From Tubulanus polymorphus (Eukaryota > Animalia > Nemertea): a DNA stretch of 64,000 bases. Shown here piece by piece: positions 6,101 to 64,000 of the stretch. Under the pieces are notes generated by a model. The model worked only from the letters and a program-made list of their open reading frames with translations, ran no database searches and had not been told where the DNA came from. The position numbers were made by a program, and so were the translations under genes. The stretch covers positions 7,959,950 through 8,023,949 of the forward strand of contig NC_134026.1 of the NCBI RefSeq assembly GCF_964204645.1, written 5' to 3'. Numbering within the stretch: position 1 is the stretch's first letter; the number at the start of each line of letters is the position of its first letter.

Positions 6101-7667
6101 CGTTCTCGGCGTACGTCTTAAACTTCATCGAAATCTTCGTTTCTTTGAACGGTCGGAATCTGTCTTTACTGATTACGATATAACCGTTACCGTCGAATCG
6201 ATAGCTATCCGGTGGCGGTGCCTGCAGGGTAGATCTGTAATTATAGAATTGTTTCGATTTTAGAACAGATCGCAACAAATATATTCAACGGTTTATTCAA
6301 ACGAAAGCCTAAAACATGAATGGGTTAAAATCACAGTTGCTACAGTTTTATTTAATCAAATAGTGGAAGTGGCTGATTTTCTCAGGGGGAGGTACACAAG
6401 GGGGAGGGGGTAGGGCACAGGGGTGCTCGAGGAGGAAGGCCGCCGGGGTGCAGGAATCTGTAATTCTGTAGTGCATCTACACACACACACACAATAGAGT
6501 GGGAGGAGTCTATGAATATAACCTGTCAATCATGCCTCGTGACGTCCTAACTATAACCGGTCTTGTACCTATCCCCTTTCTTCAAAAACACACACGCAAA
6601 TGAGAGTTAGTTAAATCCGGGATTTACATGCATCATTCCGGTGTTATGACTTAATCTGAGACTGGTTACCTAGCGATGCAAGCATCTCCATTGTGTTCAC
6701 CTTCGATGAAATTCCACAAACCAACCGGGAATTCATCAAACGTTAAATCCTCCAAGCATCCGATGAAACGACGTGCTTGTATCGCACTGGGGATCTGAAA
6801 ACAGTTAATCACCTCATTTACATATTCATAATTAAACAGCGGGGATCCGGAAACAGTTAATCATCTCCTTAACATATTCGTAAATAACCTGTGGGGATCA
6901 AATTTCGCCATTAATTATCTAATGTTAACGTATATACACATGTATTCAAATATAAACAGTGGAGATCTGAAAACAGTTTGTATATTCAAAATAAATTTTT
7001 TCAGATGCCCACACTAGTACAAGTGGTGATCTGAAAAGAGGGAAATGAGTTGAAACTCACGGTAGCGGCTGTAGGAACTCCTCCTGCATAAAATCTCGTC
7101 CCAATCGGATCTAATTTCAACACCGACATCGTTCCTGGTGATGTACCCATGGCAACCGAATTAGGTTCATCCTGCGTGCGCACAGTCAACGTTCCACTTT
7201 TGCCAATTCTAAAATATCAACAGAAAATAAATATTCAAATAATTCTCACGTTCTAAAAATAGAAACTGATTTACACCGGTATCCGTAACGCACCGCTCGG
7301 CTATTACTTCATGCCAGTTGCCATCGGCGACATTCTTCTTGTTGGAAATAACGGCAGCTCCGGAACCGAGGTCGTAACGCATTGTTACAAATCCATTAAT
7401 AATCTCTAAAGCCATATAATCAACCTACAAACAATAACAACAATATTCATATATATCATGACATCAGCAGCAGCCAAAAAAAACAGTTACACAGTCAACA
7501 CTTAGATTCAAGACCAGTCTAAACTTGTTTTGGTTCTATAACAAATCTAAAAACTTAAGATCAGTTTCAACGCAGGTTCTTTAATCAACTACACTTGAAA
7601 ACTTAAGACCAGTGTTGTGATTATAAGGTGTTTATACTGATGCGGATATATGATAATAATAATAATC

Positions 7668-36378: not shown

Positions 36379-39300
36379 TACAGGGTCCCCATGGTGCCTT
36401 TTCTAGGATATAAAATATGGGATTTAAGCAGATGACCGGGCGCGTTCCTGAATGCGCTTGGATTACCCGAACAATCCAAGAAACGATCGCGCAGCGAGAC
36501 ATCATCGACTGATATCAGCCCCAGTAATCTACAAACAGCCAAAAAAGATAGAATTTTGGCGTGTATGGATTCGCCTGTTACAACCGTGTAATTTATGTCC
36601 ATTACAAATAACTGTCAATATTATGATGAGAGTTCATTTATTCGCCATGAAAACAAATTTTCGTTATGTGCTTTTAACATACGAAGTTGTAGCAAAAATT
36701 TCGATAATTTCGACGCCTATATAAATAATTGTATTAAGACTAACTTTTCAGTCATTGGTCCCACTAAAACGTGGACCAGGGACAATGCTGATAATAACAG
36801 ATTATATAATCTATCTGGATACAATAATATATTCAAGAACCGCGATCGCGCAAATGTCGGTCGGGATCACGGTGGCGGAGTAGCTATTTAATATAAAAGT
36901 ACGCTGAAAGCCAAAGTTAGAACCGATCTTTCGGGAAATACATCTATATTTGAATCGCTTTTTATTGAAATTGACTTTGGAAAACAGAAAAACAAAATTA
37001 TCGGTATAGTCTATAGACCCCCAGACCTTAGTGTAAATGATTTTACTAATGAATTTAAATTACTTTTAGATAAAATCAACAATGAAAACAAAATAGTCTA
37101 TATTATGGGAGATTTCAATATCGATTTACTTAAACTTGGTACCCATAAGCAAACTGAAACTTTCTTCGACAGTATTACGACCTATTCATTATTCCCATTG
37201 ATAAATAAACCCACAAGAATAAATAACATTTCAGCTACTTTCATTGATAATATTTTTTGTAATGATTTAGATAGTGTATTTACTAGTGGCATTCTCTGTA
37301 CAGATATTTCTGACCATTTCCCGGTTTTTACTGAGAGTGATCAGTATGTAACTACGAAAAGCAATTTAGCAGCAAAATTCCGGAATTTTAACTGCGGTAA
37401 TAAGGCTTGCGTCTAGCTTGCGACTGGTCAGCAATTTATAACAACTATGATCCTCAATTTGCTTATAATTCATTTATGTCTAAACTTTCAGCGTTGTATA
37501 ACGAATGTTTCCCTTATTTCACTTGTAAATCTACTAGTAAAAATAATCTTAAGCCTTGGCTTACAAGTGGTTTGTTAAAATCAATCAAACGTAAGAACTG
37601 TGTGTACAAGAAATCTTTTTCAAGTCCCTATAATACAGAAAAAAAAGAGCGATACCTGTCCTATAAACGCATTCTGACAAGATTACTTAGGCAGGCGGAA
37701 AAGCAATACTACGATCATAAATTTTTATTAGCAAAAAACGATATGAAAAAACATGGAATACTATTAATAATGTAATTGGGAAAAAATCATGTAGAGATAA
37801 ATTACCTGATGTTTTTCTTTTAAATGATACCAAAATATCTGGAAAACAAAATATAGCTGATGAATTCAACTCCTTTTTTGTAAACATTGGTCAGAAACTA
37901 GCAAGTTCAATACCAAATTCAAAAACTCACTTCAGTGTTTATTTAGAGGATCCTGCTCGTGAAAATTTTTTCTTCTTTCCGACAGATCCTAATGAAATAT
38001 GTGAAATAGTCAAATCATTTTCTTGTAAAAAAGGTATCGGTGTTGACGGTATCTCTATAAAGGTAAAAAAAAGACGTAATTGATATTATAAAAACTCCGT
38101 TGGCTCACATTTTTAACTGCAGTCTCCAAACTGGAATCATTCCTGAGGAACTATAAACAGCTCGAGTGTGCCCCATTTTTAAGACAGGTAACACGGCGTC
38201 GTTCGATAATTATCGACCAATCTCGGTATTACCATGCTTTTCAAAAATTCTTGAAAAATTAGTTTTTAATCGCCTGGTTTCATTTTGTGATAAATTCTCA
38301 CTCATAAATCAAAATCAATTTGGATTTAGAAGAAAGCACTCAACAACTTTAGCTTTAGTAAAGATTACTGACGAAATTACAGCTAATATGGATGTTAACC
38401 GTCCAACTATTGGTATATTTTTAGATTTGTCGAAGATTTGTCGAAGGCATTTGATACGGTTAATCACGATATTCTTTTAGAAAAATTATGTCATTACGGA
38501 ATCAAAGGTGTCCCACTAAATTGGTTCAGGAATTATTTAAGTAACAGGACCCAAATTGTTCAATTAGATCATATAAATTCAAAACCTCTGCGTACACATT
38601 CTGGAGTCCCTCAAGGATCAATATTAGGACAACTTTTATTTCTATTATACATTAATGACTGCACTAAAGCCTCCAACATTTTGAAATTCATCTTGTTCGC
38701 AGATGATACGAACTGTTTCCTTAGTGATTGGAACATCAAAGAATTATGTAAAACTTTTAACTCAAAACTATCAAAACTGGTTGATTGGTTTCGTGCCAAT
38801 AAATTGTCACTGAATGTAAAAAAAAACCTTTTTGTTGTATTTGGTCAATTATGCCAATATTAGATTATACATCGATGGTAAAAGAATCAATCAGGTCCAT
38901 GTTACAAATTTTTTGGGAGTTTTAATTGATGACAAGTTAACTTGGAAGTACCATATTAAATCGGTTAGTAAAAAAGTTGCCTGTAGTATAGGCATTTTAA
39001 ATAGAATAAAAAATAAACTACCGTCTAAATCCTTAGTGACTTTTTACTTTTCTATGATTGACTCCTATCTCCAATATTGCAATATGATTTGGGGTACAAA
39101 TTCTGGAACTATTTTGAACCCACTTGTACTATTACAGAAGGGAGCTGTAAGATTAATTTCTCATTCAAATTATCTAGCACATACAGATCTCATATTCAAA
39201 CGTTTAAAAATCTTGAAACTCCGTGATATTAATGACTTACAACTAGCTGTTTTCGTTTATAAATTTGCCAATTCCTTACTGCCTGCATCTTTCAACGATT

Positions 39301-41113
39301 ATTGGAGATCAAAATTCCAAATACACCGACGTAATACTAGGAAAAAGTTCGATTTAGAAATTGATAGATTCAAAACCCTAAAACGAAAATTTTCGGTCAA
39401 ATTGTCTGCACCAATCCTCTGGAATAAGCTACAAAATTCGCTTAAAGAAAAACCTAGTATTTATTCGTTTCGTCTTAGCTATAAACAAGAAAATTAACTT
39501 TAATAAATTATTTGACGCCTGCGAAAAAATGTAGAATTTCTGGTATAAGCTAATGTGGAATTGCAAATTTGAAATCGAAGTTTTAAGAAATTTCGGGAAT
39601 TATGAGATTTGGCGATTGGGTAGATGATACAGTCTTCGACTGGTCTAATAAAAAAAAAAATTGTCAACTTCTGACTTCGATTCACTTTTGCCTCTAAGCT
39701 GGTCTGCAACTTCATTGCCTCCATGGTTGAAGAAAGAGCTCTTCTGATGTCTGCTTCATCATGACTTGAGCATATATCGTGTAGCCAGCCAGCCCGGTCC
39801 TGGGGCCCGGTCTGGCTGTCACTTGATATCCTAGACTTGAGTCTGAGTAGAAGTAGACATTGTCATATAATTAACTTATTCATGTTATTCTGTATGAATT
39901 ACCCGTGTGTCTTGTATTTTCTTATTCTAAAATTTGTAAATGCATTGATTTTTGGAATTTTATCCCGGAATTTCAATGTAATAAGGATCAATAAAGTATT
40001 GAATTTAATTGTCACCTTATACACATGCCATCAGTGGACGCGGAGCCGTATATGACAGCTATGCTATTATAAATTGCTAATCTCATGAAACCTGCATACG
40101 TCTAATATCGAACATACTTTCTAAAACATTTGAATATTGAAATTATATGTTTACACGTTTTTATATAGACCGCTTGTAGCCGCCGATGAAATTCACGCCG
40201 GCCCAACTCAGATCGTAGATAGCTTCGTCATTCCACTAGCATCCCCATGTCAGGGTCTGACTTTTATATCAGACTTCCAAATCGTGTATACATCCGCCAT
40301 TTAACCGAATAATCCGATTTACTTATCATTTCTATTTATCCCTGCCGCCCCTGATATAATCATACATCCTTTACTATTACAATACGTCTTCTCATGATAT
40401 TCAATGCGATATAACATTTCAACGTTCAAATAGAGGTCATTACATAATCCCAGGGAGCCATTCTACATCTTTATCAATAATATTTTGCCAAATAGCTTGT
40501 ATGTGTACACATAAACCTGTGACGTTTTGCACATCGATTTACGGTTGTCGTTTGTAAAATGACGCTGAATGGTTATCATTGTTTAGGTTTCATAATGGTA
40601 ACGTTTTATAAGGCGTCAAAAAACTGAAGTTTTCCTTATAAAGCTATTTTGTGAGTTGTTTAGATGCTCCAATTATTCCTAATTCATCTATTTCTGTGTG
40701 GTGTGTTATTATGAACATGTGATCGAGTGTGTGTGAGGGGTGTGTGTGTTTCCGCGTGCATGCGTACGTCTGAGTGTGGTTTGAATGTAAGGGGCCTTGC
40801 ATGCATAAGCATTCTTTTGCTTCTCCAAGACCCTGCCCTTTTATTACAACATGAATATCACCATGGACGTATAGACTAGACCTTAACACTAGTCTATGCG
40901 CCCATGATGACACTTATATATAACAGTACCCTTGTATTCTTTTATAAAACTTTGTATGTATAATCGTGTTGTAATTCGAGGGAAAATAAAAGTTATTATT
41001 ATGATAACAAAAGTTTCGACAAAACCTATAGAATTTAAACATATAAAGGCACCCGGTCATTTGTTTAAATCACGTATATTATATCCTAAACGGCCCCTGG
41101 GACCGCTGGGGCT
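36379..41113. repeat. ~70-bp inverted repeats bracketing the LINE (36379-36445 and 41048-41113); third direct copy at 35560-35610
   Basis: CAG.GTCCC...TTTAGGATATAA.ATA.G.GATTTAA.CA.ATGACCGGG.GC in opposite orientations. Confidence 0.75.
36500..40005 (+). mobile_element. Decayed CR1-group (Crack/Daphne/L2-like) non-LTR retrotransposon, ORF2 only
   Basis: APE endonuclease motifs (NIRS, GGGVAI, YRPP, GDFN, PTR, DNIF, SDH) and RT motifs (YRPISVLP, QFGFR, DLSKAFDTV, GVPQGSILG, FADDT) across several frames; AATAAA at ~39990; no ORF1 seen. Confidence 0.93.
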
Positions 41114-48398: not shown

Positions 48399-50344
48399 GT
48401 AACAAAAAAAGCGGAAGTAACGTCAGTGTTAGGGAACTCGTGGGAATTCGAGTAAGGTGATATGATGTGAAAAGGGCTGTTTTGAATTTCGTTTTATTAA
48501 GAAAAAAAGATCGTCGAAGCGTATGAAACCGGGCGTTTATGATATCTTGTCAAAAAAGTCAGAGCGTGACCTACATATTCCTCTCCGGGTCAGATTGTGT
48601 AACAAAACTGACAAAATATTGAAGCTGCATCTTTATCATTGTCCACAGACATCAATTAAATTGGTCGAGTAGTTTTCGCTCAGTAACAAAATTAGTCCAG
48701 CATTCAAAATTCGAGAACTCTAGTGGGAATCAATAACCTACATGACTAACCAGTAATATGGCAGTAACAGTCATTGAGAATTACAGAAACTTTTACTGAA
48801 CTCGCTAATATATCATCGACAAAATGTGTGTTACCTAACTTTTTTGTTCTGTGTATATTTGTTCTTCAAAAGTGTACGTTGTACCTATACTCTGTTTGTA
48901 ATTCAAGTATATAAACCAGTTTTTGTGCTCCTTTGGAATTTCTTGAATTTTACTGTGGAGCAATAAATTTAACGTAATATTTAAATTCTAATTGTATAAT
49001 AGATTTTGATGTCGTCTGCAATGTTATTCCCGTGACAAGGAAAACTCGACCTATTTACAGTGAAAAAACCCGAACTTTTCACAGGGAACTTCAAAAACAA
49101 CCCTAAACAATTGAATGGGTGCGGGGTCACGTGTTTGAAATTGACCAATCAGAAACTTCCATGGTGACATATTCTAGAAAAAAAACAAATCTTTTACGAA
49201 AATATCAAACACGAGATATTCAAAACTATTCAAAAAAGGTTGCAGCCCGTCGTGCAATAGGCAGACGGTTATTTGGAAAGAAAGTATTTGTTTAGGATTT
49301 ATGATAGACAATTGTTTGGGGGGACTAAAACATGAGCTAACAAAACTTACCCTGAACAAAGAACAGAACCAGTAAAAACATAATCTGTAACTGATCCATC
49401 CTGTTGTAGAGTCGTTAGTCACCTGTAGAACTGCCGTCGTCTGTCTCCAGTAAAACTGCTCGTCTGTCTCCTGTAGAACTGTCGTGTCACCAGTAGATCT
49501 GCTATCCTATATCACCAGTAGAATTACTGTCTTCTGTCCACGATAGAACTGGATACCTGTCACCTGACGCCTTTAAATTCCTGTTTGAAATATAGCGACA
49601 ACCAATGAATTGAAACAGAACTGTGATGTGCAGTTTTACTCGTAAGCGCTGAATACAGGCATTTATTTCATTGAGAAATAAACATTACAAACTCATACAA
49701 ATGAATTACATTATATTTGATTCAAATTCAAGCCTGAATTCAAAATCAAACCGAAATCGTGTGATTACTGTAAGGGTGATCTCATGCTCCTAGTTCATGT
49801 CAAAAGATCAGTACTTGCGATGAGAGAATTAAGTTGCTTAGGAGTAACAAGCCATGTTTAAACTGCCTTGGCAAAAACTTATTTATCGTCTTGTCATTGT
49901 ACGTAGGTTCTGAATTGAAGGTGAGCCAGGTAGCCGAAATGTTTTACTTGTTGACAATTCCGACGACTTCAAAAACAAATTCTGTTAAGACAGAATTCAG
50001 AATTAATTCCTTAGATAAATAAACTAGATTGGAAATTAAGCCATTGATGGTCCATAAGATTTTAACACCACTTAAGAACAAACTCTCACAGCGTTTTCTG
50101 AATTCATTTGCAAGATTTATAGTTAACTGTGAATAATATTAAATTCGCCAAAATCTACCACTATTTACTCAGATTTTGTGAAAGTTTACATTGTGAAATG
50201 TAAATGCAACTACATGTGATAACCATTCGACTTACATCAAAATCAGTTGGAAGCTTTTAGCAGAAGTAATTGGGAAAGTAGGGTTTCAGATCAGAGGTCG
50301 AAGGTCGAACACTCATCACCACAAGTAATTTTTTTTCCTTATAA

Positions 50345-50551
50345 ATGGAAGAGAATAAGACAGAACAAATTGATGTTAATGAAAATCAATATCATTGTCC
50401 ATATTGTAAAAAATACATTGATAAATCAAATAAACCTTACATGGAAAACGTTAGAAATTATATTGATTCACTAGAAATAAAAGATACAATTGAAATTTTA
50501 GAAATATTACGCAGTAAAATTGTGACACACATAAACAGTGAGTGCGCGTAA
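50345..50551 (+). CDS. Small hypothetical protein (single CPYC motif)
   Basis: ORF starts at TAAATG with a duplicated promoter block. Confidence 0.6.
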   Translation: MEENKTEQIDVNENQYHCPYCKKYIDKSNKPYMENVRNYIDSLEIKDTIEILEILRSKIVTHINSECA

Positions 50552-50690
50552 CAACAGCTGCGCGTGTGTTAACTGTACCCGGATAAATAGATGCTGTGAG
50601 GCTTGGGTGAGAACGGTTAATAGCGTGCTTGTTATATACAAGGGGAAGTAATCCCCACTCATCACCACAAATAATTTTTTTTCCTTATAA

Positions 50691-51017
50691 ATGGGAGATA
50701 GAAAAGCATTCTTAGCAACAATAAATAACAGAATAAAACCAGCAAAAAAACAATTTGAAATAAAAAAGTTAGTTGATGTTACAAAAGAAATTGAACATAA
50801 AATATTGAAATTAGAAAAGATAAAAACTAAATATGGAGAGAAAGTATCAGCTAATTTAAGCTACTGTAATGTTAGTACATCGCGAGAATTTAAAGTATTT
50901 TTACCTGATAAATGGGTTTCATTGAGTACAGAGGAATTAAAAGATTTAGAAGGATTTAAAATAATATATCATGGAAAAAATGAAGACGGCCATCATGATT
51001 TAGAAATTGTTGATTAA
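50691..51017 (+). CDS. Small Polinton-type protein, possibly OB-fold/ssDNA-binding
   Basis: KLEKIKTKYGEKV...FKVFLPDKW...IIYHG pattern recalled from invertebrate Polintons; TAAATG start; fold assignment is inference. Confidence 0.6.
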   Translation: MGDRKAFLATINNRIKPAKKQFEIKKLVDVTKEIEHKILKLEKIKTKYGEKVSANLSYCNVSTSREFKVFLPDKWVSLSTEELKDLEGFKIIYHGKNEDGHHDLEIVD

Positions 51018-51178
51018 ATTTAAAAAAATAAATTAATAAAAATAATGAATATCTAGAATCCGAAATGACTTATCTGGACAATTTAATTGCTCCGCATAGA
51101 TAGACAAAAGTAGTGAGATATTCAATTAATATTCAATTAATTAAAAAAAATTATTTTTTTTGCTTTTTTTCTAAAATT

Positions 51179-51547
51179 TTAATCCATTTTTTTTATTATC
51201 AATTTTGGAATTTCAGAAGTATTTTCATTTTTGATAGCAGTTGTTTCAGAATTATTAATATCATGAATTTTATTTGATTTCTTATACCAATTACACCCAA
51301 TCAAAATGAATACAATTACAAATCCAAATGTAAAATATAGACATTTATCAAATATTCTATTATCAGAAGGAGTAGAAATAACAACATTTTCACCATTTTT
51401 ATTAACATTTTTATTACTTATTTTTTCTTTTACAGCTTTTTTATATTCTTGTGATTTAATTCCTAATTGCCGAGACCATTCAATTTGTTTCTGAGTTCTC
51501 GGTTTTTTCTTCACAGTTAATTCCTTCACTTCTTTCACCTCGCTCAT
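51179..51547 (-). CDS. Basic protein with one transmembrane helix
   Basis: KKKPRTQKQIEW N-terminus; LYFTFGFVIVFILIGC; TAAATG start. Confidence 0.7.
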   Translation of the reverse strand: MSEVKEVKELTVKKKPRTQKQIEWSRQLGIKSQEYKKAVKEKISNKNVNKNGENVVISTPSDNRIFDKCLYFTFGFVIVFILIGCNWYKKSNKIHDINNSETTAIKNENTSEIPKLIIKKMD

Positions 51548-52086
51548 TTATTATAGAAATATTTTTACTTTCAATATTTGAAAATGTTATAACCCCAGTT
51601 GATAATAATGTCATAAATCCACCTAATTGAAACGATAAATATCCAATCCATTTATTTAATTCAGTCATAACTAAATAATCATTTTTTAAATCGGAATATA
51701 ATCTATTTTCATCTTCAATTGGTAGTATATAATTACATAATTTACTATAACCTTTTACTACATTTTCTGATATCGCGTCATTAATTCTAGCTGTTCTCGC
51801 GGCTTCATGAATCTTAAATAATCTAATAATTTCAAATGATTTCATTGTATCTAATTCATTATAAGTTAAATTTTTATCGACAAAATTTTTTACATTTTCC
51901 AGATGCTATTAATATTTCTAATTGATGTTTGCAATAAAGATAATATTCATAATTATTATTTGTTGTAACATTATTTAAAGCACCATCATCTGGAATTAAT
52001 TTGTTTTCTGTTATTCCTAAATCATCTAAAGTTTTTTCAATTGGAACATCACCATTTTTAGATTTTATTTTCTTTTCACCTACCAT
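51480..52086 (-). pseudogene. Hypothetical protein with C-terminal hydrophobic segment, +1 frameshift
   Basis: ORFs 51874-52086 and 51480-51845 join (CKNFVDKNLTYNELDTMK) if one A is removed from the A6 run near 51890. Confidence 0.7.
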
Positions 52087-52117
52087 TTATATAACAAAAA
52101 AATTAGTTGTGATGTTG

Positions 52118-52368
52118 CAACTAGAATTTAACTAGAATGTAACTAGAATTCAACTAGATTAACAAGCTAGTTGAAATATTGTTGTTTTTGTTTATTTCTA
52201 GTTAATTCTAGTTGATTTTTGTTTCAACTACTAACAACTAGAATTCAACTAGAATGTAACTAGAATTAAACTAGATTAACAAGCTAGTTAAAATATTGTT
52301 AAATCTAGTTGATTTTTGTTCCAACTACCAATAACTAGAATTCAACTAGATTAACAAACTAATTGAAT
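52118..52368. repeat. AACTAGAATT-based direct/inverted repeat array inside the Maverick
   Basis: Two ~120-bp higher-order copies built from CAACTAGAAT units and their inverse. Confidence 0.85.
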
Positions 52369-52977
52369 TTAAATAAATTCATATTTAAATGGGTGTTGTA
52401 ATCTAAATAGTAATTTTGATCTTTTAATATTTTTCAACTTATCCATATATTCATTATGTAAATCATGTGGAATAATATCATTTTCCTCAAGCGCATTTTT
52501 CATCGATTTTCTATCTTTATTGTAGAATAAAACTAGAAATCTAATGTTTTCTCTAAAGTCTTTAACAATTGAATTATATTTTTGATTTAAAACCCAAGTT
52601 GTTATCCCAAAATGTCTCCCATAGAAAGCTAGATAACATAACTCACTTTCTCTAACTTTTGAATCATGTAAATTTGCGCAATCATCTATAATAAATAATG
52701 TATTTGATCCTTTATAAATATCAATTGCTATTTTAATACAATTATTTGAATTTTCTTTTACTGTTTTAGGATCTAATATAATAAATTTATTATTTCTAGT
52801 AATATTTCTATCATAAGTTTGATTAAATTCATACGTTGGGCAAAATAATACTATATTATCAAAATAGTTTTCATAAACAGTTTCTAATAAATTTAATATA
52901 AAATAAGTTTTTCCACAATTTGTTACGCCAGAAATTAACATATTATGAGGCTCAAATATAAATAATTCCTTATTCAT
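52369..52977 (-). CDS. A32/FtsK-like genome packaging ATPase
   Basis: Walker A GVTNCGKT, Walker B LFIIDD, GRH motif, then VLNQ. Confidence 0.93.
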   Translation of the reverse strand: MNKELFIFEPHNMLISGVTNCGKTYFILNLLETVYENYFDNIVLFCPTYEFNQTYDRNITRNNKFIILDPKTVKENSNNCIKIAIDIYKGSNTLFIIDDCANLHDSKVRESELCYLAFYGRHFGITTWVLNQKYNSIVKDFRENIRFLVLFYNKDRKSMKNALEENDIIPHDLHNEYMDKLKNIKRSKLLFRLQHPFKYEFI

Positions 52978-54106
52978 TTATATATTTTTAATTTTACTTG
53001 ATAATATCCATTCATTGAATTTATCTGGCCATCCTACCCATTTTACTAAAGAATATTTTTTTCTTTTAATAGTTTTTGTTTTTAATACTTTTTCAATTTT
53101 ATATTCTTGTTCTAGATTTTCAGTAGTTAAACTTAATTCTTCTTCGTAAAAGTAGCCATCAACTTCTTCACCATCTAAATCTTCTAATTTATAGACATAT
53201 GGTTTTGTTGTTATTACCTTTTTTATTTTATATATTACTCTAGTAAAATTTCGATCGTATCCTTTATCAAATATCTTTTTATACTTAGAAATTCTAACAT
53301 TTTGACCAACTTTAAATTTAGGTTCACCAAAATCATCTACAAGAAATACTCCATATAAATTATTCCAAACAATTTCAGCATTTTCAGGTTTTCTAGCATC
53401 AATAGGTTTCATTCCAATAGAAGAATGATAAGAATTATTATATCCTTCTATCAATTTTGGTAAAACATCAATCCATTTAAAAGTATTATTTGCTGTAAAA
53501 TATTTCCACATTCTTGTTCTTAATGTTCTATTAAATCGTTCAACAACTGCTGCTTTTTTATCTGATTTTGTTGAAAAATATTTAATATTATGATTATCTA
53601 AGAGTTCATGAACAAGTGAATTATCAAACTCTTTTCCATCATCAAATTGTATTTTTTTCTGGTTTTAGTTTATCATCCGAAAGAAATTTTCTTAAAACAT
53701 TTGATGTTTGTACAGCATCTTTTCTATAAAGTGGGAAGCTCCATACATAACGACTAAAAATATCAATTATATTCAATAACCACCAATAATCATCATTATC
53801 TTTCTTAACATTTTTCATATCAATTAAATCTCCTTGCCACTGTTGATCTACATAACTTACCATAGTTTTACGAGTTTTATATTTTCTAACAATTTTTTTA
53901 TGTGTTGTATATGTTGGTTGTTCTAACATAAATTCATTTATATCTTCATATTTAACTAAATTTTGTGGGATTATCTTATCTAATTTATCTTGTTTTACTT
54001 GACGCCATATATTTTTGGTAGAAGAATAAGCAACCGAACTCTCAGGGTTGTAATATAAATTTCTTAAATATTGGTCCGTAGTATTAGGAGTTTTTTTACC
54101 TCCCAT
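52978..54106 (-). pseudogene. Retroviral-like (rve) integrase with C-terminal chromodomain, +1 frameshift
   Basis: WQGDLIDM, IDIFSRY, (QF)DDGKEF, KAAVVERFNRTLR, YKIEKVL...LVKWVGWPDKFNEW; frames join after removing one base from the T7 run at 53652-53658. Confidence 0.93.
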
Positions 54107-54136
54107 TTATATATCGTTAATTTTAAATTTATATTT

Positions 54137-55399
54137 CTAATATTGAATACTATCTAACTGTGAATTTACAATATTTAATTGTGCGTCAGATATAATATAA
54201 ATGTGCATTTTGAAATTTTTGTCTCCTTTTTTCTTTTTCATGAATAATTGTATTCCATCTTTAGTGTTCTGTAATTTCTTCCCAGAACCATGTAATGAAT
54301 TATCCTCTGTTGTTCTAAAATCTAACCATAATGCATATTTATTACCGGTATAATAATCAATTTGATTAATATTACAATTTTCAAATGATTTTACTTTTTC
54401 ATTCATAAAATGTTTTCTAATTTCTGGCCATTGATCAATCATTCTCATTCCTTGACAAAATATTTTATTTGCTATTCCTTCGATAGTTATTTCAACTTTT
54501 GTTATTTTAGGATTATAATAATTATCTACCTTTATTGCACCATTAGAATATGTTGCAATGGTAAAAAATATTAATATACCTTCTTGGTATTAACTATTAA
54601 TAGTTCTTCTTGGGAAGTTAATATTCTCATTAATTATTTCATCATTTGCATTAATAGTTACAGTTTTAAATTTATCAATATAATCATATAATAATGAAAA
54701 TCCTTGATTGTATTGAGTTTGAATTGTGCTAGCAATATTTTCATTAGTTACTGTGTTATATTCTAAACATATATTCGATAATTTATAACCCATATCTTTA
54801 ACAACGCTAGATAATACAATTTCATTTACGGGAGCAAATGTTATCTCAAATATAATATCTTCTTGAATTGCATATTTATATAAAGGTGAATTGTTATTTA
54901 TCAATTCAAAGTCTAATGGAATTTTATATTTGCTTCCATTAATCTTTTTAATCAAATTATCTGTGGCACGAGTTACTATTGCGTCATTAGCTCCTGATCT
55001 TAATTTATTATGGTTTTCCGATTGAATACCCTGAAATATCATATTATTTCTATTTTCTTTAGTTAACCATAAATCTTTATAATGCATAAATAAATTATAA
55101 TCATCTAATGAGAAAACTGTTTCTGGACCAATCTTTATTGTTAACTTTTTAATCAAATATCTTCCAACATTATCAACAACATAATTGTTATCATGACCAG
55201 TTACTTTTATATCGGCTGATAAATAAATACTATTTGGAACATAAAAAGTATTTTGTGTTAATCTAGGAATTCTAACATATAAAGTTTCATCGGGATTAAT
55301 ATTTGAAGGGTTATGAGTAATTATATGATGTGATCTTTCTGCTTTAATAGCATTAAATATTCTAGAAATCTTAGAAGGACTTATATAACTCCCACTCAT
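54137..55399 (-). pseudogene. Major capsid protein (double jelly-roll), in-frame 15-bp insertion with stop
   Basis: HIITHNPSNINPDETLYVRIPRL, YKLSNICLEY, NFPRRTI..GILIFF, YYNPKITKVEITIEG, YALWLDFR..DNSLHGSG, YIISDAQLNI; both ORFs are in one frame. Confidence 0.85.
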
Positions 55400-55439
55400 T
55401 TATTTAACAAAAAACTTAATTATTTATTTTTGATCATGG

Positions 55440-56878
55440 TTACTTGATATTTTTTGATATCATGTTTACTAAACCAAAGATAATAGTACTTACAACTGTA
55501 ATTAAAAATAGAATAATATGTTCAGCGGCAAAGTTAAGAATATTCCCAGCAGATTTCAATATAAAACCAACAATTGATGCAATAACTCCTGGCAATACTG
55601 CAGCAGATTTTTTAGATAGTTCCCATAAATATTTTGCTAATTTCTTTAAACCATCCTTAACTTTATCTTGTATAGAATTATTATCATTCGGGGGTTTATC
55701 CGGTTTATTGGGAGTAGGAGTAGATTTCAAAGCATTTGATATTGCTAAACCAATTGTTGTAGTAACATAGTTACAGCTGCTAGAATTGAAAGAATTGTTA
55801 TTCCTTCTAATTTAAATAATAACTTTATTCTATCTTTCAGTGATATTTCAGAATTTGGTTTAATCAACAAATCTTTAAAAATAACTTTTAATCTATTTAT
55901 ATTATAATCATATGATTTTAATAATAATTTAATTTCTTCTTTTTGTACTTCTAAATTATCTTTTAAATTATTAATTTCTTTTTCTAAACGTAATTCTTTT
56001 TGTCTATATTCTATTTCATCAATTACTTGATGATCTAAATCAGACTTTAATTGTTCTATTTCTTTATTTTTATCAGTTAATTCTTTTACCAAATACATAA
56101 TTTTTTGATCTCTTATACTTTTATTATGTGCAATTTTATCAGATGCAAGTCTTATACTAATAATTTCTCTAATTGCTTTATCAGAAAATATATCTAAATC
56201 TTCTAATTCTTGATCTGTTGCATCAAGTAATCCATTCGGTAAAAGTTTTTCAATTGGAACTTTATTTGATTTAAGTTTACTAGTTTTGGAAGTTATATTC
56301 TGTTCAGATGTTGTTTCTGTTTCTGATTTCTTTTTGATTATTTCAAATAATTCATTAATTCTTTGTTTAAATACGTCTATATTATCATCTATTTCTTTTT
56401 GTGTAACATCAGTTATTTCATTACTATTACTTATTATTTTAATTCTATCTGGTTTTAATTTTTCTAAAGTTGATTCTGATAACATTTTAGTTTTATTATT
56501 TTTATAAGTGATATCAATATAATAATCACCTTTCAAACGATAATAACATTTACCATTATCTAAAAATTTTAATTGATCTGCTAAAAGTCCAACGTCTTCA
56601 TCATTTATGTTAAGTTTAGATTTTTCAATTAAATCTTCTAATTAAGGTATTTTGTTTAAATTATCTATATCTTGTTTTACTAAATCTGGGTCTAAATTTT
56701 CAGGATTTAATTGTGATTCTGCATTTTTAATATAATCAAGCATATTCAAATTATTATTATATTCTGGCTCATTACCATCATTAAAACTTGTTTCATCAAA
56801 ATCAGGTGGTTGTTCATCAGTTATACCAGGTTCATCAAAAGGATCCATTCCAATATCTTCTCCACCTTCTACATCCAT
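55440..56878 (-). pseudogene. Long acidic/coiled-coil protein with C-terminal transmembrane/amphipathic helices (one stop, one frameshift)
   Basis: ORFs 56642-56878 and 55745-56536 are in frame across a TAA; frameshift at ~55765 joins to ...LPGVIASIVGFIL...IILFLITVVSTIIFGLV. Confidence 0.75.
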
Positions 56879-56893
56879 TTATATAAAAAAAAA

Positions 56894-58335
56894 TTAAAAT
56901 TTAAAATATAATATTCCTCCGATTACAATTCCTATACAGGTTATAGCTAATTTAGTATTTTCATGGGATTTATTGTCATTATCAGTTTTAATTATATCAT
57001 GTTGAATAACACCGTGTGGGTGCCATACGGCACCATTATCAGTTTTAATATCACCATGTGGGTGCCGTACGGCACCATTTTCTGTAGTATTGTAATCTTT
57101 TATTTTGGAATCATTATCCAATTTAATATTCTTAGTTTTAGTTTCTGTTGATTGAATATGTTTTTTATTTTTTTTACCTTCCATTAATTTTGGAGCAGTG
57201 ATAATCTTTTTATTTATATCATTTAACCCAAATGAATTATTTATTGTAGCAGTTTTAATTAGATTATTATAACCAATTATGTTTCCCATCTTTAATACTA
57301 AATCATTAGAAATAATTAATAGATTAGGGCCTATACAATAATTTAATCTAATATGTGATTTATCTAAATAATTTTGATATCTTATAATGTTTTCTGGAAT
57401 CGATCTATTTTTATCATTATGTATGGAATCTTCAAATAATACTTTGAATTGTTTCTGTGTATCAAATGATGTATTCAAATTTCCAATTATCGGTGATCTT
57501 GTTTCAACTTGCGCACCTAAAATACATATCAAATAAGTTCTAATAGATTGATTTATTCTTTGTATACCTGATTTTGTAAAACCTTCATTATTTTCTAAAA
57601 TTAAATAAACCCAACCATTATTGTTTTCTTGTTTTAAATTATCATAAAATTTCGGTAATTTATTGAAATTTAATGTTTCTAAATCCTTTGTTTCTATTTT
57701 ACCATAACCTAATTTATTATTATAGATATTATAAAAGCTATTAGATGGTATGGGAAGTGCACAATATTCTGCAATCTTTTTAGGGCAAGGAAGTGATCTT
57801 ATTGTTCCAATTTTTGTTCTAAAATCAGAATTATTTATATCTATATTAAATTCATTACAAATTTTATAAAACTTTGATGAATTAATATTATATCTAATTC
57901 TTTAAAATATCTTGATCCTGGTAAAGCGCACTCTAATTCATTTAATATTATTCTGATTTGAAAGTATGTATGAAATCTAAATAAACTTTGAATTAATTTA
58001 TATTTAGAATTATTCAAATGATCATTCCAACTAATTCCACAACCTGTTGTTGCACAATAAACAGCAAAATTTAATTGGTTCTGCCAATACTTCATATTAG
58101 ATTTTAATAACCATTGTTTTTCATCTTTCAATTTTTTAAAATTAATTAAATATACATGAAATATATTTTCCATCTTTGCATTAAAATTATTAGTTTCAGT
58201 AACATAAATTTCTAAATTAGTTAATGAATCTAAAACTTCATTTCTATATGTAATATCTTTATTAAAATCTATTGCTGGAATATTATATTTAATTGATTTA
58301 TTATATTGGAAAGCTTTTGGAAAACTATCTGCCAT
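56894..58335 (-). pseudogene. Conserved Polinton hypothetical protein with C-terminal TM anchor (frameshift ~57890)
   Basis: WQNQLNFAVYCATTGCGIS, FHTYFQIRIIL; the alternative frame is open through GFTKSGIQRINQSIRTYLICILGAQ to the TM tail. Confidence 0.75.
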
Positions 58336-58351
58336 TTATATAATTAAAAAA

Positions 58352-58786
58352 TTAATAATTTATTAATTCTTTTAATAATTTATCTTGTTCTTCAACTGTT
58401 ATATGACCATTTAAACTTATGATATAATCTAGTGTGTTCTTTAATTTATTAATTTCTTTTATATTAGTTTTAATTTTTTCTTTATTACTTTTTATATTTA
58501 ATTTTGAACTTATACCAGTTAAAACACTTGAACTTAATCCTAATACGCCAATTGATATAGCCAAAGGTGTTAATGGACTGAATATTGCTAGAAATGTTAT
58601 TACAGAACTAATTGTAACCGAACCACTAATAATCAAATAATATATAATTTTACTTTTTAAATATTTTTTCTTTTTTATCTTTAAGTCACTTTCAAATTCT
58701 AATATTTGTTTTTCTAAATATATTTTTAATTTAGTTTTATTTATATCATGAGGAATGATATCAATACTATCAACTTTATCTTCCAT
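58352..58786 (-). CDS. Two-TM membrane protein
   Basis: Two adjacent hydrophobic helices flanked by basic/coiled segments; TAAATG start. Confidence 0.75.
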   Translation of the reverse strand: MEDKVDSIDIIPHDINKTKLKIYLEKQILEFESDLKIKKKKYLKSKIIYYLIISGSVTISSVITFLAIFSPLTPLAISIGVLGLSSSVLTGISSKLNIKSNKEKIKTNIKEINKLKNTLDYIISLNGHITVEEQDKLLKELINY

Positions 58787-58806
58787 TTATTTAGCAAAAA
58801 AAATTA

Positions 58807-59228
58807 CTAATTAGTAAACTTATAAGCAACAAATATAACAATAACTGTTCCACCTAAAATCCAAATTATTTCATATTTCTTCTGTTCATTACTTGGGATA
58901 TAATAATCTGATAATTTAGGTTTGTATAGATGTAATTTTTCTTTATTGGTTACCGCGTTATATAAACCCATTGCATCATCAACTGATTGAAAATCTCTAT
59001 GTGAAATCTTCTGATCATATAATTCCTTGTTAATATAATCCATATAGTTTGTCTCTTTTCTCTATATTCTTCCGCAGCTTTATTATATTTCTCTAACGCT
59101 AAGTTATGTCTTCTTTGTTCTCCTAATGAACTATTTTTATCAATATGTTTAAATAAATAACCACCACCAGTAAATGCCAAAGCGTTAACAATTGCTGATC
59201 CTATAATAGTTATAATTGCAGAAGCCAT
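58807..59228 (-). pseudogene. Membrane protein with N- and C-terminal hydrophobic helices (frameshift ~59050)
   Basis: MASAIITIIGSAIVNALAFTGGGYLF...RHNLALEKY joins MDYINKEL...IIWILGGTVIVIFVAY. Confidence 0.72.
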
Positions 59229-59252
59229 TTATTTAGTAAAAAAATTATGCAT

Positions 59253-59474
59253 TTATATGGGAGGAATATATTTTTGTTTTTCTAAATAATCAATAGTTAA
59301 ATTAGATAAAGTAATTGCTAATGTTAAATTTAAAATATCATTTATATCAAATCTATCAACATTAACACTTCCCATTTTGAATACTTTTTTTAATACCATT
59401 GAATAACCAACAGTTCCAACAGATAGTAAGGCGCCATTATATAATCCAGTTATTATCCACTTATTATCACTCAT
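59253..59474 (-). CDS. Small hydrophobic protein
   Basis: 73 aa with two hydrophobic stretches, DYLEKQKYIP end; TAAATG start. Confidence 0.72.
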   Translation of the reverse strand: MSDNKWIITGLYNGALLSVGTVGYSMVLKKVFKMGSVNVDRFDINDILNLTLAITLSNLTIDYLEKQKYIPPI

Positions 59475-59831
59475 TTATTTATCAAAAAAATTACTATCAT
59501 CAAAATATTTAGTTAACTTATTTATGATTAATTCAACATTTATTTCATTACTAGTTTCATTTGTATATATTTCAATTATTATTTTTTTAATATCATCGAT
59601 GATAAAATCTTCATCTAATTCATAAAATCTTAAAGATTCTCTAATTAAATTAGTAATCTTTTCTACATTTAAAGTTTCTTTATCTATTGTTGTTTCATAC
59701 TCAAATGTTATTTCATTAGAAAATGCAATATTTTTAATATGTGTAATTACATCATTAACGTTAAATTTCATTTCTTTCTCACGTTTAAAATCATACCCAA
59801 AACATATACTCGGTCCAACAGTTATATTCAT
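59475..59831 (-). CDS. Hypothetical acidic protein
   Basis: 118-aa ORF with T-run/TAAATG start; its stop abuts the next ATG. Confidence 0.65.
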   Translation of the reverse strand: MNITVGPSICFGYDFKREKEMKFNVNDVITHIKNIAFSNEITFEYETTIDKETLNVEKITNLIRESLRFYELDEDFIIDDIKKIIIEIYTNETSNEINVELIINKLTKYFDDSNFFDK

Positions 59832-59847
59832 TTATATAATGAAAAAA

Positions 59848-60603
59848 TTACTCTTTACATCTTATAACTAATTCATAAATTACAGGAAAGTTATTCAAAT
59901 CAATTAAATAACCATTATGATTTCTTATTTCTAATTTAAAATTATTGAAATGTGGAATACAAGGTTTGAAATCACATTCAGTTAAATTATAATTTATTTG
60001 AGTTCCAAATTGTTTAACATTTTTTAATGGTAAAATATTTAATAAACCAGAATTACAAATTGTATCTTTAGTTGCTTCAAATGTTTTTGTTGGGTCAATT
60101 AAATTACAATAAATATAGAAATGTGTGTAAGGTATTATATTTGAGCTACCTTCTACGTTTCCAGTAACAATACGCGGTTTAATTCCTAACATTTTAGCTA
60201 TTGGTTTGTTTACCATAAATTTATTTTGTTCATTGGCTAACTTTATTTTAATTTCATCAGAACTATCACTTTTTATAAATCTAATTGAAAATTTATCTTC
60301 ACTTTCAAGTTTTAGTCGTGCTTTCCGATTAATTTCTTGGGCTAATGTTTCTAAATTATATAATCCTGGTTTTAAAAATAGATGAAACCATTTATTTTTA
60401 TTTCCAATATGAATTAAAAAGTCTCTATGTTCAAAAGTTTTAGCCGTTATATTATAAAATGAGTTACATAAACTTATATTAACTAATTTTAAATCAACAC
60501 AATTCTTAAATTCCCTATCTAATTGTATTAGTAAATTATGTGATTTATAATTTGTAAGTTTTCTAGAATCAACAAATATTCTGTATTCTTTTAATTCTAC
60601 CAT
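59848..60603 (-). CDS. Minor capsid protein (penton, single jelly-roll)
   Basis: LKPGLYNLETLAQEIN, YIYCNLID, LLNILP, FKLEIRNHNGYLIDLNNFPVIYELVIR are typical Polinton mCP motifs. Confidence 0.82.
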   Translation of the reverse strand: MVELKEYRIFVDSRKLTNYKSHNLLIQLDREFKNCVDLKLVNISLCNSFYNITAKTFEHRDFLIHIGNKNKWFHLFLKPGLYNLETLAQEINRKARLKLESEDKFSIRFIKSDSSDEIKIKLANEQNKFMVNKPIAKMLGIKPRIVTGNVEGSSNIIPYTHFYIYCNLIDPTKTFEATKDTICNSGLLNILPLKNVKQFGTQINYNLTECDFKPCIPHFNNFKLEIRNHNGYLIDLNNFPVIYELVIRCKE

Positions 60604-60671
60604 TATTTATAACATAAAAAAATTACCGCTCATCACTAAAAATTAATTTTAATAAAATTTTTCCTAAATAA

Positions 60672-61947
60672 ATGGATGAGAAGATAGCATGCGAAATTTG
60701 TGGTGAACTTCTAAGAAAAAGTAATATGGCTCGACATATGAAAAAACATGATGAAAATTATAAACCCCCTAAACTAAACTGTCCAAAATGTAATAAATTA
60801 TTCTCAAGAAATTATGTTAAAAAACATTCAGAGAAGTGTAGAATTAATGGCGCAACGGCTAATGTTGTTAGTAATGAAAGTAATAGTAATTCTGCCGAAG
60901 TTGAACCTGAAGTTATTTGGAAAAGACCTTTCTTATTCTATGATAAGGATGATATAAAAGATCATTTCTGTGAGCCTTGTCGAATGAAATTTAGTCCTGA
61001 CAAATATAGAAGATTGGGAGAATCATCAATTTCGTAAAGAACATATAGATAAAATTTCTAATAAATTTGAAACTGAATTTAATGAAAGAAAAAATAATTT
61101 ATTAGAAAAAATAAAATATGAGAAAACGTTACCAGATAATAAAGAAACAGTTGAAAAGTTAGAAAAACAATATAATGAATTAACAAGAAAAACATATTAT
61201 TGTAAATATTGTAAATTGATTATTACAACAAGTAATTCAAATCTACATAATAGAACAATAAAACATAAAGAAAACGTAAGAAAATACCAAGAGCTTAATG
61301 AAGATCTATTACCAATAAATTATAAACAAAAATGCCCACAATGTATTTATGCGACCTTACGACAAGAAGGTACTGTGTTATTTTGTGTTGATTGTGGATG
61401 GCAAAAGAATTTATGGGGTGAAGAAAAAACTAGACATTTTCTCATAGATCCAAAATTAAATTATCTAGATGAAATTTTTAAAATATTTTCTATAGAAGAT
61501 CATACACCAGAATATATGCAATGGCTTGAAAAAATGAAAATAATAGAAAATAAAAATGGTGAAATAACTAAAAAAGATATTATAAATACAATTATTCCGT
61601 CAACATTTAACACAAAACAAAAGAAAATGTATTTATATTTATTATTTAACGATTATTATGAAAAACCTAAATTAACAGAAGAAGATATGGAAAATATAAA
61701 AAAAATATTCAAACAAATATTAATGTATCATTTGGAAAATAGAATAACAGATTCAATAAATTATGAATTCTTTTTAAATAAGATTGTAAATTATTTAAAC
61801 CTAGATATTATAATTCCATTTGACGAATTAACAAACAAAAAGAAACAAAGAGAGCGAGATGAAATGTGGAACAAGATAGAACTTTATTTAAATGAAAAAA
61901 AAATGGAATGGAAGAAGAACCTAAACAAATTATACAAGAACAATTAA
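60672..61947 (+). pseudogene. C2H2 zinc-finger array fused to a VLTF3 (poxvirus A2-like late transcription factor)-like domain, frameshift ~61000
   Basis: CEIC..HMKKH, CPKC..HSEKC, CEPC..HQFRKEH, CKYC..HNRTIKH; then CPQC...FCVDCG zinc ribbon and INYEFFLNKIVNYL...KKQRERDEMWNKI. Confidence 0.7.
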
Positions 61948-61999
61948 ATGAAAATGAAGAAGCCAATAGTGATTTCGAGTTTGATGATATAGATCCATT

Positions 62000-64000
62000 T
62001 TAATAACCATAAGGTAATGTTTTTATACCATCATCTGAAATATGCCTTTTATCATCAAATGGATTCAAACTAGTTTTTTCAGCTTCATTAATGTACATCT
62101 CGTGATTTTCTGATCTTAAACAATTCATTTTATCTTTCATTACAATTGATTTATATAAACACTTTATATAATCTTGAAATTCTATATGTTTATCAACCAC
62201 ATGTTTTGTTATTCCTTTTAACTTTTTAGCTTCATGATCTTTTGTTCTGTAACTATACATTTTACTTCTTATCCCAACAAATTCAATCATTTCATCACCC
62301 CCTAATTCATCTTTAAACTTACTAGGAATCTTTTTATTATCATTGCTAAATAGTTCATGATCTTTGGGATAATTGCTAAAATCAAAATGATGTTTTAATG
62401 TTTTTAAGTCTTTTGTTATATCATTTGTCTTGATTTTTAGTATGTAGGCGTCGGTATTTTTTTGGATTAATGGGAACCCAGAATTGAATGTTCCATCATC
62501 TGTTGATAAATCATAAACATAGTCAGTTGGGTTATATATTTCAAATAAATCTTTAACTTCTTCTGTTAACTCATTTTCTACATGTCTTAAATTAAAGCAA
62601 TTTGGTTTAGATTTAATCAATCCAATATTCATATTAAATCCTAATGAACTGCATAATATATTCAATCCTGATATAGCAACTTTTCCTTTTTGAGCTAAAG
62701 ATATTGTTTTGCGATTTTTGAAACTTTTTGAACCATCTGCAGCATAGAATCCAATGAAGAACCATTTTCTTAAATTATTTTTTGCATTTAATACATAATC
62801 TGGAACTATCTTTTCTTTTGTTGAAGTATTACTTTTAACTATTGCATGAATATAGAATTCATCATTATATTTTATAGCAAACTCTTTAGGATTATTTACA
62901 AGTATTCTATAAACTGCTGTTGATTTCATAACATCCATGATTTTAAATGTTTTATTTGGATAAACTTCTTCACAGAATTTCTTTATTCTTTCTAATAATT
63001 TTAAGTCTTGATTGCATAAATACCAGCAATATTGAGTGCGATTAACATAATTATACACACCTGCTGAACCATCACCCATGAAAAATCCTTTGATAAAATA
63101 TTCTTTTTCTTCTAATGTTTCGGGTTCTACATTATAAATATTATCAATAATTTCATCAAATGAAATATGATTCATTCTTTGGAAAAATCTTTTATGCAAT
63201 AATTCATCTCCAATTTTTATATCAGTTGGTTTTATTTCATCACCATTTCGTTTAATTAAACTATGATCTTCTGTAACATCTACAAATGCTAATTTAGTTT
63301 TTAACTCTATAGATTTTCTTATTTGTTTTATGCCTAATAATATTCTTTAATTTTTTCCATCCATTTCTTGTCCAAACATCCATTAAATCATTTATTTGTA
63401 TTAATTCTTTTTCTCCATATGAAATATAACATTCATTTTGTTTTGGAATTATTTCTGAAATTCTTCTTATCAATATTTTATTATTACATTTTAATAATAT
63501 TGGGGTGTCAGCTGTTACAGAATCAAAATATAATATTTCAATATGCTTTTCCCCAAAAAGTGGTTGTAAAACATTATAATAAAAATCATACATTAATAAT
63601 TTTGATACTTCTAAAACAGTCGAACCAATAAATATAGGTTTATTAAATTTCATTGATGTTCTTTTTAATTTAACTGCTGTTAAATAATCTTCAAATCTTT
63701 TATTTCCTAAATGTCTAGGACTTGATTGTAGGTGTCTTAATCTTTCAGAATTATTTACTAATTCAATATCATTTCTATTTCTAATATTTTCGCATGTTTT
63801 ACCATAAAAACTATTATTCATTAATTTGAAGAAATCTTTTTCAAAATCTGTTTTTGATATGGTTCTCTGTTGAGTATTGAAATCTATATATTTTTCTAAC
63901 CACTTCGATTGATTAAATTCAATATATCTATGTACTTTCTTTAATTTCATTCCTTGTTTTAGATAAAATTTTAACATTCTATAATGAACAATATAATTGT
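62000..64000 (-). pseudogene. polB: Protein-primed family B DNA polymerase (C-terminal part), intein-containing; N-terminus beyond window
   Basis: FFKLMNNSFYGKTCENIRNR, KPIFIGSTVLEVSKLLMYDFYY, YFD|TD, KFKDE, FVGIRSKMY, KLKGI, KTSLNPFDDKR, TLPYGY. Confidence 0.95.
62456..63521 (-). mobile_element. Intein with LAGLIDADG homing endonuclease in PolB (355 aa after removing one extra base)
   Basis: Block A SVTADTPILL, block B VDVTEDHSL, LAGLIDADG motifs FIKGFFMGDGS and FFIGFYAADGS, block F YVYDLSTDDGTF, block G LIQKN followed by extein Thr. Confidence 0.93.

Follow-up and report, generated by a model that had tools for sequence, protein, structure and literature searches.

A window of 64,000 nucleotides (nt) of Tubulanus polymorphus DNA (GCF_964204645.1, contig NC_134026.1, forward-strand positions 7,959,950-8,023,949) holds an integrated Polinton-like element whose genes begin with a start signal of poxvirus layout, in which a TAAAT overlapping the ATG stands at a fixed distance from an upstream T-run. 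The signal is conserved across the lineage of related elements, and one gene joins zinc fingers to a domain resembling the poxvirus late transcription factor A2 (VLTF3). Given these start signals and a likely captured pox late factor, the element likely borrows the RNA polymerase of a pox-type virus. We consider it probable that it is a Polinton-like virus transcribed, in virophage-like fashion, by the polymerase of a co-infecting pox-type helper.

Start motif in the window and in related loci

The original prediction described TAAATG at 14 of 15 visible gene starts; all 14 coordinates were confirmed, the motif there is in fact ATAAATG, and the fifteenth start (60603) reads TAAATAATG. The T5-T9 run that it placed at most starts is found at 11 of the 14, and the three exceptions (51547, 52977, and 54106) are A-rich without any T4 run. 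The spacing is fixed, with A at -18/-17 in 13 of the 14 starts and T at -14 in every one. A motif-blind test over positions 50305-64000 found TAAATG at 14 of 28 first ATGs of open reading frames (ORFs) of at least 60 codons, compared with 26 of the 500 remaining ATGs (p 4e-10). Of the 14 long ORFs that lack it, nine are downstream pieces of broken genes, four run antisense and have no homologue in any of the four loci used for comparison, and the last is 60603. Because an ATG that follows an in-frame TAA is bound to count as "first", TAG-ATG and TGA-ATG were run as controls; long ORFs were opened by 0/13 and 0/7 of these, versus 14/40 TAA-ATG (11/13 with a T-run, 3/27 without).

Whether the motif is enriched over background depends on its form. 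The bare hexamer TAAATG lies within chance (40 versus 29.6 +/- 5.6, maximum 46, in 300 dinucleotide shuffles), whereas the composite AATTTTTT-N2-8-ATAAATG is enriched (9 versus 0.05 expected, maximum 1 in shuffles) and is absent from the 50.3 kb of host flank; TAAATG is likewise enriched at homology-defined starts, at all GC levels (see below). We regard the start motif in the window as confirmed.

To fetch related loci from metagenomes, the ATPase of the window was aligned with 56 of 114 matches (57 sequences in all), and of the 83 loci obtained the best 80 (L001-L080) were used. For the lineage counts, which include the window, starts were defined by homology, and six near-duplicate loci and four shadow families were dropped. 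TAAATG stands at 31/41, 102/136, and 54/77 of these starts in the low, middle, and high (0.35 and above) GC bins (70-76%), versus 89/1639, 215/4751, and 71/2786 other ATGs (2.5-5.4%). The frequency of T at -14/-13/-12 is 0.87/0.73/0.76 at starts and 0.38/0.39/0.35 at non-start TAAATG, and the peak lies 9-11 bases before TAAAT. ATPases of the lineage that keeps TAAATG are 40-80% identical, and in one relative (L022) 11 of the 13 starts along 12.4 kb have it; some loci (L051, L059-L065) are decayed. The TAAATG start signal is thus a lineage-wide trait. Pure AT bias as its main cause was rejected in view of the shuffles of the composite and the GC-bin counts, and stop-start coupling in view of the TAG/TGA controls and the reuse of an upstream gene's stop at only 17 of 201 distinct TAAATG starts. 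Divergent gene pairs account for 62 of the 201, and many divergent-pair starts overlap ATPase codons. In two relatives (L022:5915-5944 and L030:966-996), the capsid and a neighbor gene diverge 28-29 nt apart, each with TAAATG, and the pair shares a single central A/T run. Two promoter subtypes occur in the close clade, where ATPase starts are A-rich (mean 2.4 T of five positions) and capsid starts T-rich (4.5).

Vaccinia offers a close comparison. In its intermediate and late promoters TAAAT overlaps the ATG; a T is conserved at the 10th upstream base in the late ones, and the intermediate ones have an A/T-rich stretch at 15-19 (PMC11980589). The vaccinia late layout invoked by the original prediction holds across the lineage, both in the TAAAT over the ATG and in the T conserved some 10 nt before TAAAT. 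Further shared with vaccinia intermediate/late promoters and A2L are an A-rich subtype and an A2-like factor (PMC11980589, PMC5294985). The element differs in a T-peak up to 1 nt further upstream, in a divergent A2-like domain (18% in the profile alignment) fused to zinc fingers, and in that no polymerase genes were seen in it. Among 56 distinct TAAATG starts from 38 poxvirus-type loci, the T-peak is at -13/-12, the 9th-10th base. At the vaccinia TAAAT signal, the viral polymerase starts on AAA and slips into a poly(A) leader (PMC6211774). The vaccinia ATPase gene A32L is of the intermediate class, but so is the capsid-fold gene D13L (PMC11980589); the mapping of A-rich and T-run starts onto these classes is therefore loose.

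A zinc-finger gene with an A2-like domain

The gene starting at 60672 encodes zinc fingers and continues in another frame into a domain resembling A2/VLTF3. Both parts lie in a single chain in a natural homologue of 697 amino acids (aa), P0173, and the fusion is also intact in P0174. A degenerate pattern made from the A2-like frame of the window gave 40 matches in IMG/VR. Of these, 38 fall in poxvirus-type A2 genes that encode 224-270 aa and belong to large isolate genomes, two have no real ORF, and none is in a giant-virus VLTF3; all five of the A2 genes tested passed Pfam Pox_VLTF3. A pox A2 profile matches the window frame over essentially its full length (positions 4-199 of 224, E-value 6e-10 among 3083 frames), with the four zinc-ribbon cysteines aligned, and HHalign of the domain against pox gave 98.3% over 211 columns. 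A phmmer search of 1.84 billion proteins returned four matches, one of which is P0176 (226 aa; Pox_VLTF3 and A2L zinc ribbon; E-value 2e-5); the other three are longer, have no VLTF3 Pfam match, and were taken as Polinton-type. Conversely, a profile of the Polinton A2-like domains scored 39 pox-type proteins at 36-57 bits and nine giant-virus VLTF3 proteins at no more than 25. A PDB sequence search with the domain gave no meaningful match, and a homologue search with that of P0173 returned only P0173 itself, over a length range that leaves out pox-sized A2. Judged from these sequence matches, the domain was likely captured from a poxvirus late transcription factor.

A proposed helper polymerase and its alternatives

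Our search for borrowed transcription genes found no polymerase subunit in the available element sequence, and neither the window nor L001-L080 has a frame of at least 500 aa besides the DNA polymerase (PolB). From this lack of a visible polymerase, yet a vaccinia-type start signal, we infer virophage-like dependence. The original prediction had named a cytoplasmic pox- or giant-virus-like polymerase in place of host Pol II; the promoter layout and its spread across the lineage support this in part, the A2-like domain, just beyond the coordinates given there, adds to it, and the use of such a polymerase is still a deduction. Under this scheme, the viral polymerase would initiate at the AAA of TAAAT in the helper's cytoplasmic factory and slip there to produce 5' poly(A) leaders. 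An intermediate class may comprise the A-rich starts (those of the ATPase and a few other genes) and a late class the T-run starts (capsid and membrane genes). The zinc-finger/A2 fusion could bind element DNA and draw the helper polymerase to it or, alternatively, compete with the helper's own A2, and integrated copies would be silent when the helper is absent.

Several points weigh against a pox-type helper. Neither transcripts, with their starts or poly(A) leaders, nor a helper virus have been observed. The right end and the start of PolB lie beyond the window and no locus is shown complete, so that a polymerase of the element's own could be encoded in an unseen part. Just ~3 kb of orthologous genes went into the pox promoter control. 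For the A2-like domain, the window protein has no direct Pfam Pox_VLTF3 match, nor do P0173-P0175; being below that model, it is called A2-like rather than filed as a member of A2/VLTF3. Its domain scores 38.9 bits with the pox profile, which fall to 10.4 once a 10-residue motif is masked (1000 shuffles reach 5.8 at best); a profile built from the stretch preceding this motif gives no matches, and the 38 pox sequences were fetched by the window-derived motif itself, which makes the profile test partly circular. The window domain also obtains 17.3 bits with a giant-virus VLTF3 profile. The VLTF3 tree does not separate Polinton from pox sequences; it holds three groups, without asfarvirus or egovirus sequences, and therefore cannot show kinship alone. 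The domain was detected in only two of 81 sources (the window and L047), most loci being short, while the promoter is lineage-wide. Finally, the nearest non-Polinton relatives of the PolB intein are delta-like PolBs of giant-virus rather than poxviral type, and G001, a bin of non-pox giant-virus type that encodes VLTF3 and an Rpb5-like subunit, has scattered look-alike starts, TAAATG with a T-run.

These last two observations favor a helper among other cytoplasmic large DNA viruses, such as an egovirus, an asfarvirus-like virus, or another member of Nucleocytoviricota with TAAAT late starts, which we consider unlikely. TAAAT is also common to ranavirus DNA polymerase promoters (PMC5294985), and egoviruses have donated genes to polintons (10.1101/2024.03.23.586382). 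The closest intein relatives are other Polinton PolBs (61, 48, and 44%), followed by the delta-like PolBs (41% and lower), and the lineage has therefore also met non-pox giant viruses. Against such a helper, the window's A2 motif led to pox-type genes in 38 of 40 cases and never to giant-virus VLTF3. Moreover, in a control of 80 giant-virus loci chosen by the intein, TAAATG stands at 116/1040 starts (11%) and TATA-type signals at 568/1040. G001 was considered as the helper (pattern 17 versus 5 in the control) and dropped, its look-alikes making up just 4 of 26 ORF starts. A motif-based scan of viral contigs for helpers found no stretch with more than two TAAATG ORF starts among the at least 121 listed. 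The intein itself (window 62500-63530, minus strand) is of the homing-endonuclease kind, at a site used in giant-virus PolBs, and is also present in P0116, P0117 (a 136-member cluster with contigs to 1 Mb), and P0119.

Seven relatives lack TAAATG (L016, L017, L019, L020, L023, L033, and L070; L024 is near-identical to L023), and six of them have TATA near the ATG. TATA within 13 nt of the ATG is found at 18/28 of their conserved-gene starts (0/3 in L070) versus 63/809 other ATGs, and is often preceded by an ATTT run. This second dialect resembles the African swine fever virus late initiator TA(+1)TA (PMC7163114) as well as the giant-virus starts above, and its label requires three changes on the ATPase tree. 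L023 of this group encodes a VLTF3 fragment (6543-7049, plus strand) with a weak Pox_VLTF3 match (6e-4, below the cut-off) and an RKNFLSY motif like that of giant-virus VLTF3; its top five single matches are giant-virus proteins, none of them significant. The pairing of promoter dialect and VLTF3 type, with one example per type, would fit helper-specific wiring. More broadly, and tentatively, one widespread animal Polinton lineage may consist of integrated virophages of undiscovered invertebrate poxvirus-type viruses, virophages that captured the late factor of their helper and retooled it with zinc fingers so as to hijack the helper polymerase, and sister elements may have switched helper class via promoter dialect and VLTF3 type.

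It is distinctly unlikely that the element is self-sufficient, either because the zinc-finger/VLTF3 fusion recruits a host polymerase to a private promoter or because the unseen part beyond the window encodes its own polymerase. The intact fusions in P0173 and P0174 and the yeast pGKL elements, which pair a TAAAN initiator with their own polymerase (PMC6211774), are compatible with this, as is the right end beyond the window. Yet L022 keeps TAAATG without an A2-like match or a polymerase-sized ORF besides PolB, and vaccinia A2 acts together with the viral polymerase (PMC11980589).

A translational or compositional origin of TAAATG, whether from the coupling of stop and start codons or from an AT-rich context of start codons in transcripts made by host Pol II, is very improbable. 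The 17 starts that adjoin an upstream stop, the chance-level hexamer count, and a gene family in which the motif is antisense to ATPase codons agree with it. The motif nevertheless holds at high GC and at divergent pairs, TAG and TGA never substitute for TAA in the window, and the fixed upstream T-peak has no role in such a model. Furthermore, T at -3 is a poor start context in animals. That the promoters were inherited from a time of helper dependence and are now without consequence is likewise hardly probable: the window copy is broken at at least nine places and some relatives are decayed, but the motif is kept across widely diverged ATPases and its two subtypes track gene function.

Known systems and gene content

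The occurrence of Polinton-like viruses (PLVs) in entomopoxvirus occlusion bodies and the presence of VLTF3 in polintons are already in print. Mavirus also integrates, and it has a protein-primed PolB and an rve integrase. Mavirus and Sputnik are likewise small viruses with double jelly roll (DJR) capsids, and their genes carry the late promoter of the helper; they differ in having protist hosts, Mimiviridae helpers, and other motifs, whereas the present element lies in the genome of an animal and has a motif of pox type and a capsid that is divergent (PMC6723459). Also comparable are the PLVs found in entomopoxvirus occlusion bodies and proposed as parasites of poxviruses in animals (Barth et al., PMC11296320). 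These have a protease and no reported rve integrase, a distinction drawn from their description, and a term search of the main text found no occurrence of "promoter" or "transcription". VLTF3 has been reported in polintoviruses and MELD viruses (PMC11131425, PMC8502044, 10.64898/2026.06.19.733378), described in the available portions as giant-virus or mimivirus-like, with no pox-type assignment or promoter match. The comparison also took in PMC4542343, 10.1101/2025.10.09.676808, and 10.64898/2026.10.13.758929. None of the literature matches listed links polintons to TAAATG or a pox-type promoter, within a coverage that leaves out most subscription journals and the supplements of the entomopoxvirus and coral papers, which could hold pox-type VLTF3 annotations.

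The yeast cytoplasmic linear elements pGKL1/2 are not known to have an integrase or capsid. They are Polinton-related and resemble the element in their TAAAN initiator and 5' poly(A) leaders, and differ in encoding their own polymerase and capping enzyme (PMC6211774).

A helper-specific promoter code is a possible answer to the open question of how Polintons are expressed in animals and why no particles of theirs are seen. If correct, this code would name the kind of virus to seek in these hosts, promoters in host genomes would predict unseen viruses, and virophage-like parasitism, possibly as an inherited antiviral defence, would extend to animals and poxviruses. The zinc-finger/A2 fusion would also offer a natural means of probing A2, a poxvirus factor about which little is understood.

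The element (Table 1) is marked by a fall in GC to 0.23 from about position 50305. Read depth within it is ~620-1230 versus ~3-12 in most flank bins (run X6, 88% likeness, 48500-50950 covered), and this roughly hundredfold excess identifies a high-copy family. By its predicted genes it is Polinton-like, with PolB, an rve integrase, an A32 ATPase, and a DJR capsid. The window's PolB pieces alone have no PolB Pfam match; they are 57-65% identical to P0116, which has DNA_pol_B_2 (5e-17) and intein matches and identifies a protein-primed PolB. The retroviral-type integrase has an intact 360-aa homologue in L022. The DJR fold is predicted on the L001 capsid (77% identical to the window's), whose alignment-based model has a predicted local distance difference test (pLDDT) score of 83 and a Foldseek match of 1e-15 to DJR capsids, with identities to named capsids of 8-15%. 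An adenain-like maturation protease was not found among the scanned ORFs of the window, L001, and L022, and the element ends lie outside those sequences. The name Maverick, used in the original prediction, therefore suits the core genes and is loose with regard to the protease and to the capsid clade. Single-protein and alignment scans of IMG/VR found no relatives of the ATPase, capsid, or A2-like domain, and none were found in GTDB genomes.

Table 1. Features of the integrated element (window coordinates)
Positions	Strand	Feature	Basis or remark
50305..64000	.	Integrated Polinton-like element, GC ~0.23, many broken genes	GC step and read depth; continues past the right end of the window
50326..50347	+	T-run promoter and start of 68-aa ORF, no homologue found	43-nt duplicate of promoter at 50672..50693
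50672..50693	+	T-run promoter and start of 108-aa ORF	L001 ORF 74% identical
51545..51566	-	A-rich (intermediate-like) TAAATG start, 122-aa conserved gene	Sequence and comparison of close clade
52084..52105	-	T-run promoter; conserved gene split into 51874-52086 and 51480-51845	Comparison with relatives
52369..52996	-	A32-like packaging ATPase, A-rich TAAATG start	Pfam Pox_A32 1e-12
52978..54125	-	rve integrase with chromodomain, two frames; A-rich TAAATG start at 54106	rve 2.4e-5, Chromo 9.6e-5 (both below Pfam cut-off, on broken pieces)
54137..55418	-	Major capsid protein (predicted DJR), two pieces; T-run promoter at 55399	76-77% identity to L001/L005 capsids
55745..56897	-	Coiled-coil/membrane gene, broken; T-run promoter at 56878	Comparison with relatives
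56894..58354	-	Conserved 442-aa-type gene, broken; T-run promoter at 58335	Comparison with relatives
58352..58805	-	SLATT-like two-helix membrane gene; T-run promoter at 58786	Weak Pfam SLATT_fungal 0.0038
58807..59247	-	139-aa-type membrane gene, broken; T-run promoter at 59228	Comparison with relatives
59253..59493	-	73-aa hydrophobic gene; T-run promoter at 59474	Comparison with relatives
59475..59850	-	118-aa accessory gene; T-run promoter at 59831	Comparison with relatives
59848..60625	-	251-aa gene, possible minor capsid; T-run then TAAATAATG	L001 orthologue starts with TAAATG
60653..61947	+	Zinc-finger gene, TAAATG promoter, frame change near 61,000, then A2/VLTF3-like domain ~61315-61910	
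62000..64000	-	Protein-primed PolB 3' part with LAGLIDADG intein in catalytic D-T-D motif	LAGLIDADG_3 2e-7; broken inside intein

The TAA of the ATPase start signal doubles as the stop of the integrase. An intergenic array at 52100-52370 consists of AACTAG-rich imperfect repeats with self-complementary arms, and L001 has an inverted-repeat region at the corresponding place (9082-9359); from its sequence, the array is possibly an origin or a binding site. L001 also encodes a deoxynucleoside kinase (10340-10981, minus strand; Pfam dNK 2e-31), likewise under a T-run TAAATG promoter. In L022 (138-4205), the same capsid/promoter module adjoins a PolB that is apparently of a different type from the window's. 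Judged from its translations, the host flank contains exons of a putative laminin-alpha-like gene (159-35335, minus strand) and a broken element, presumably like a long interspersed nuclear element (LINE) (36892-39497, plus strand).

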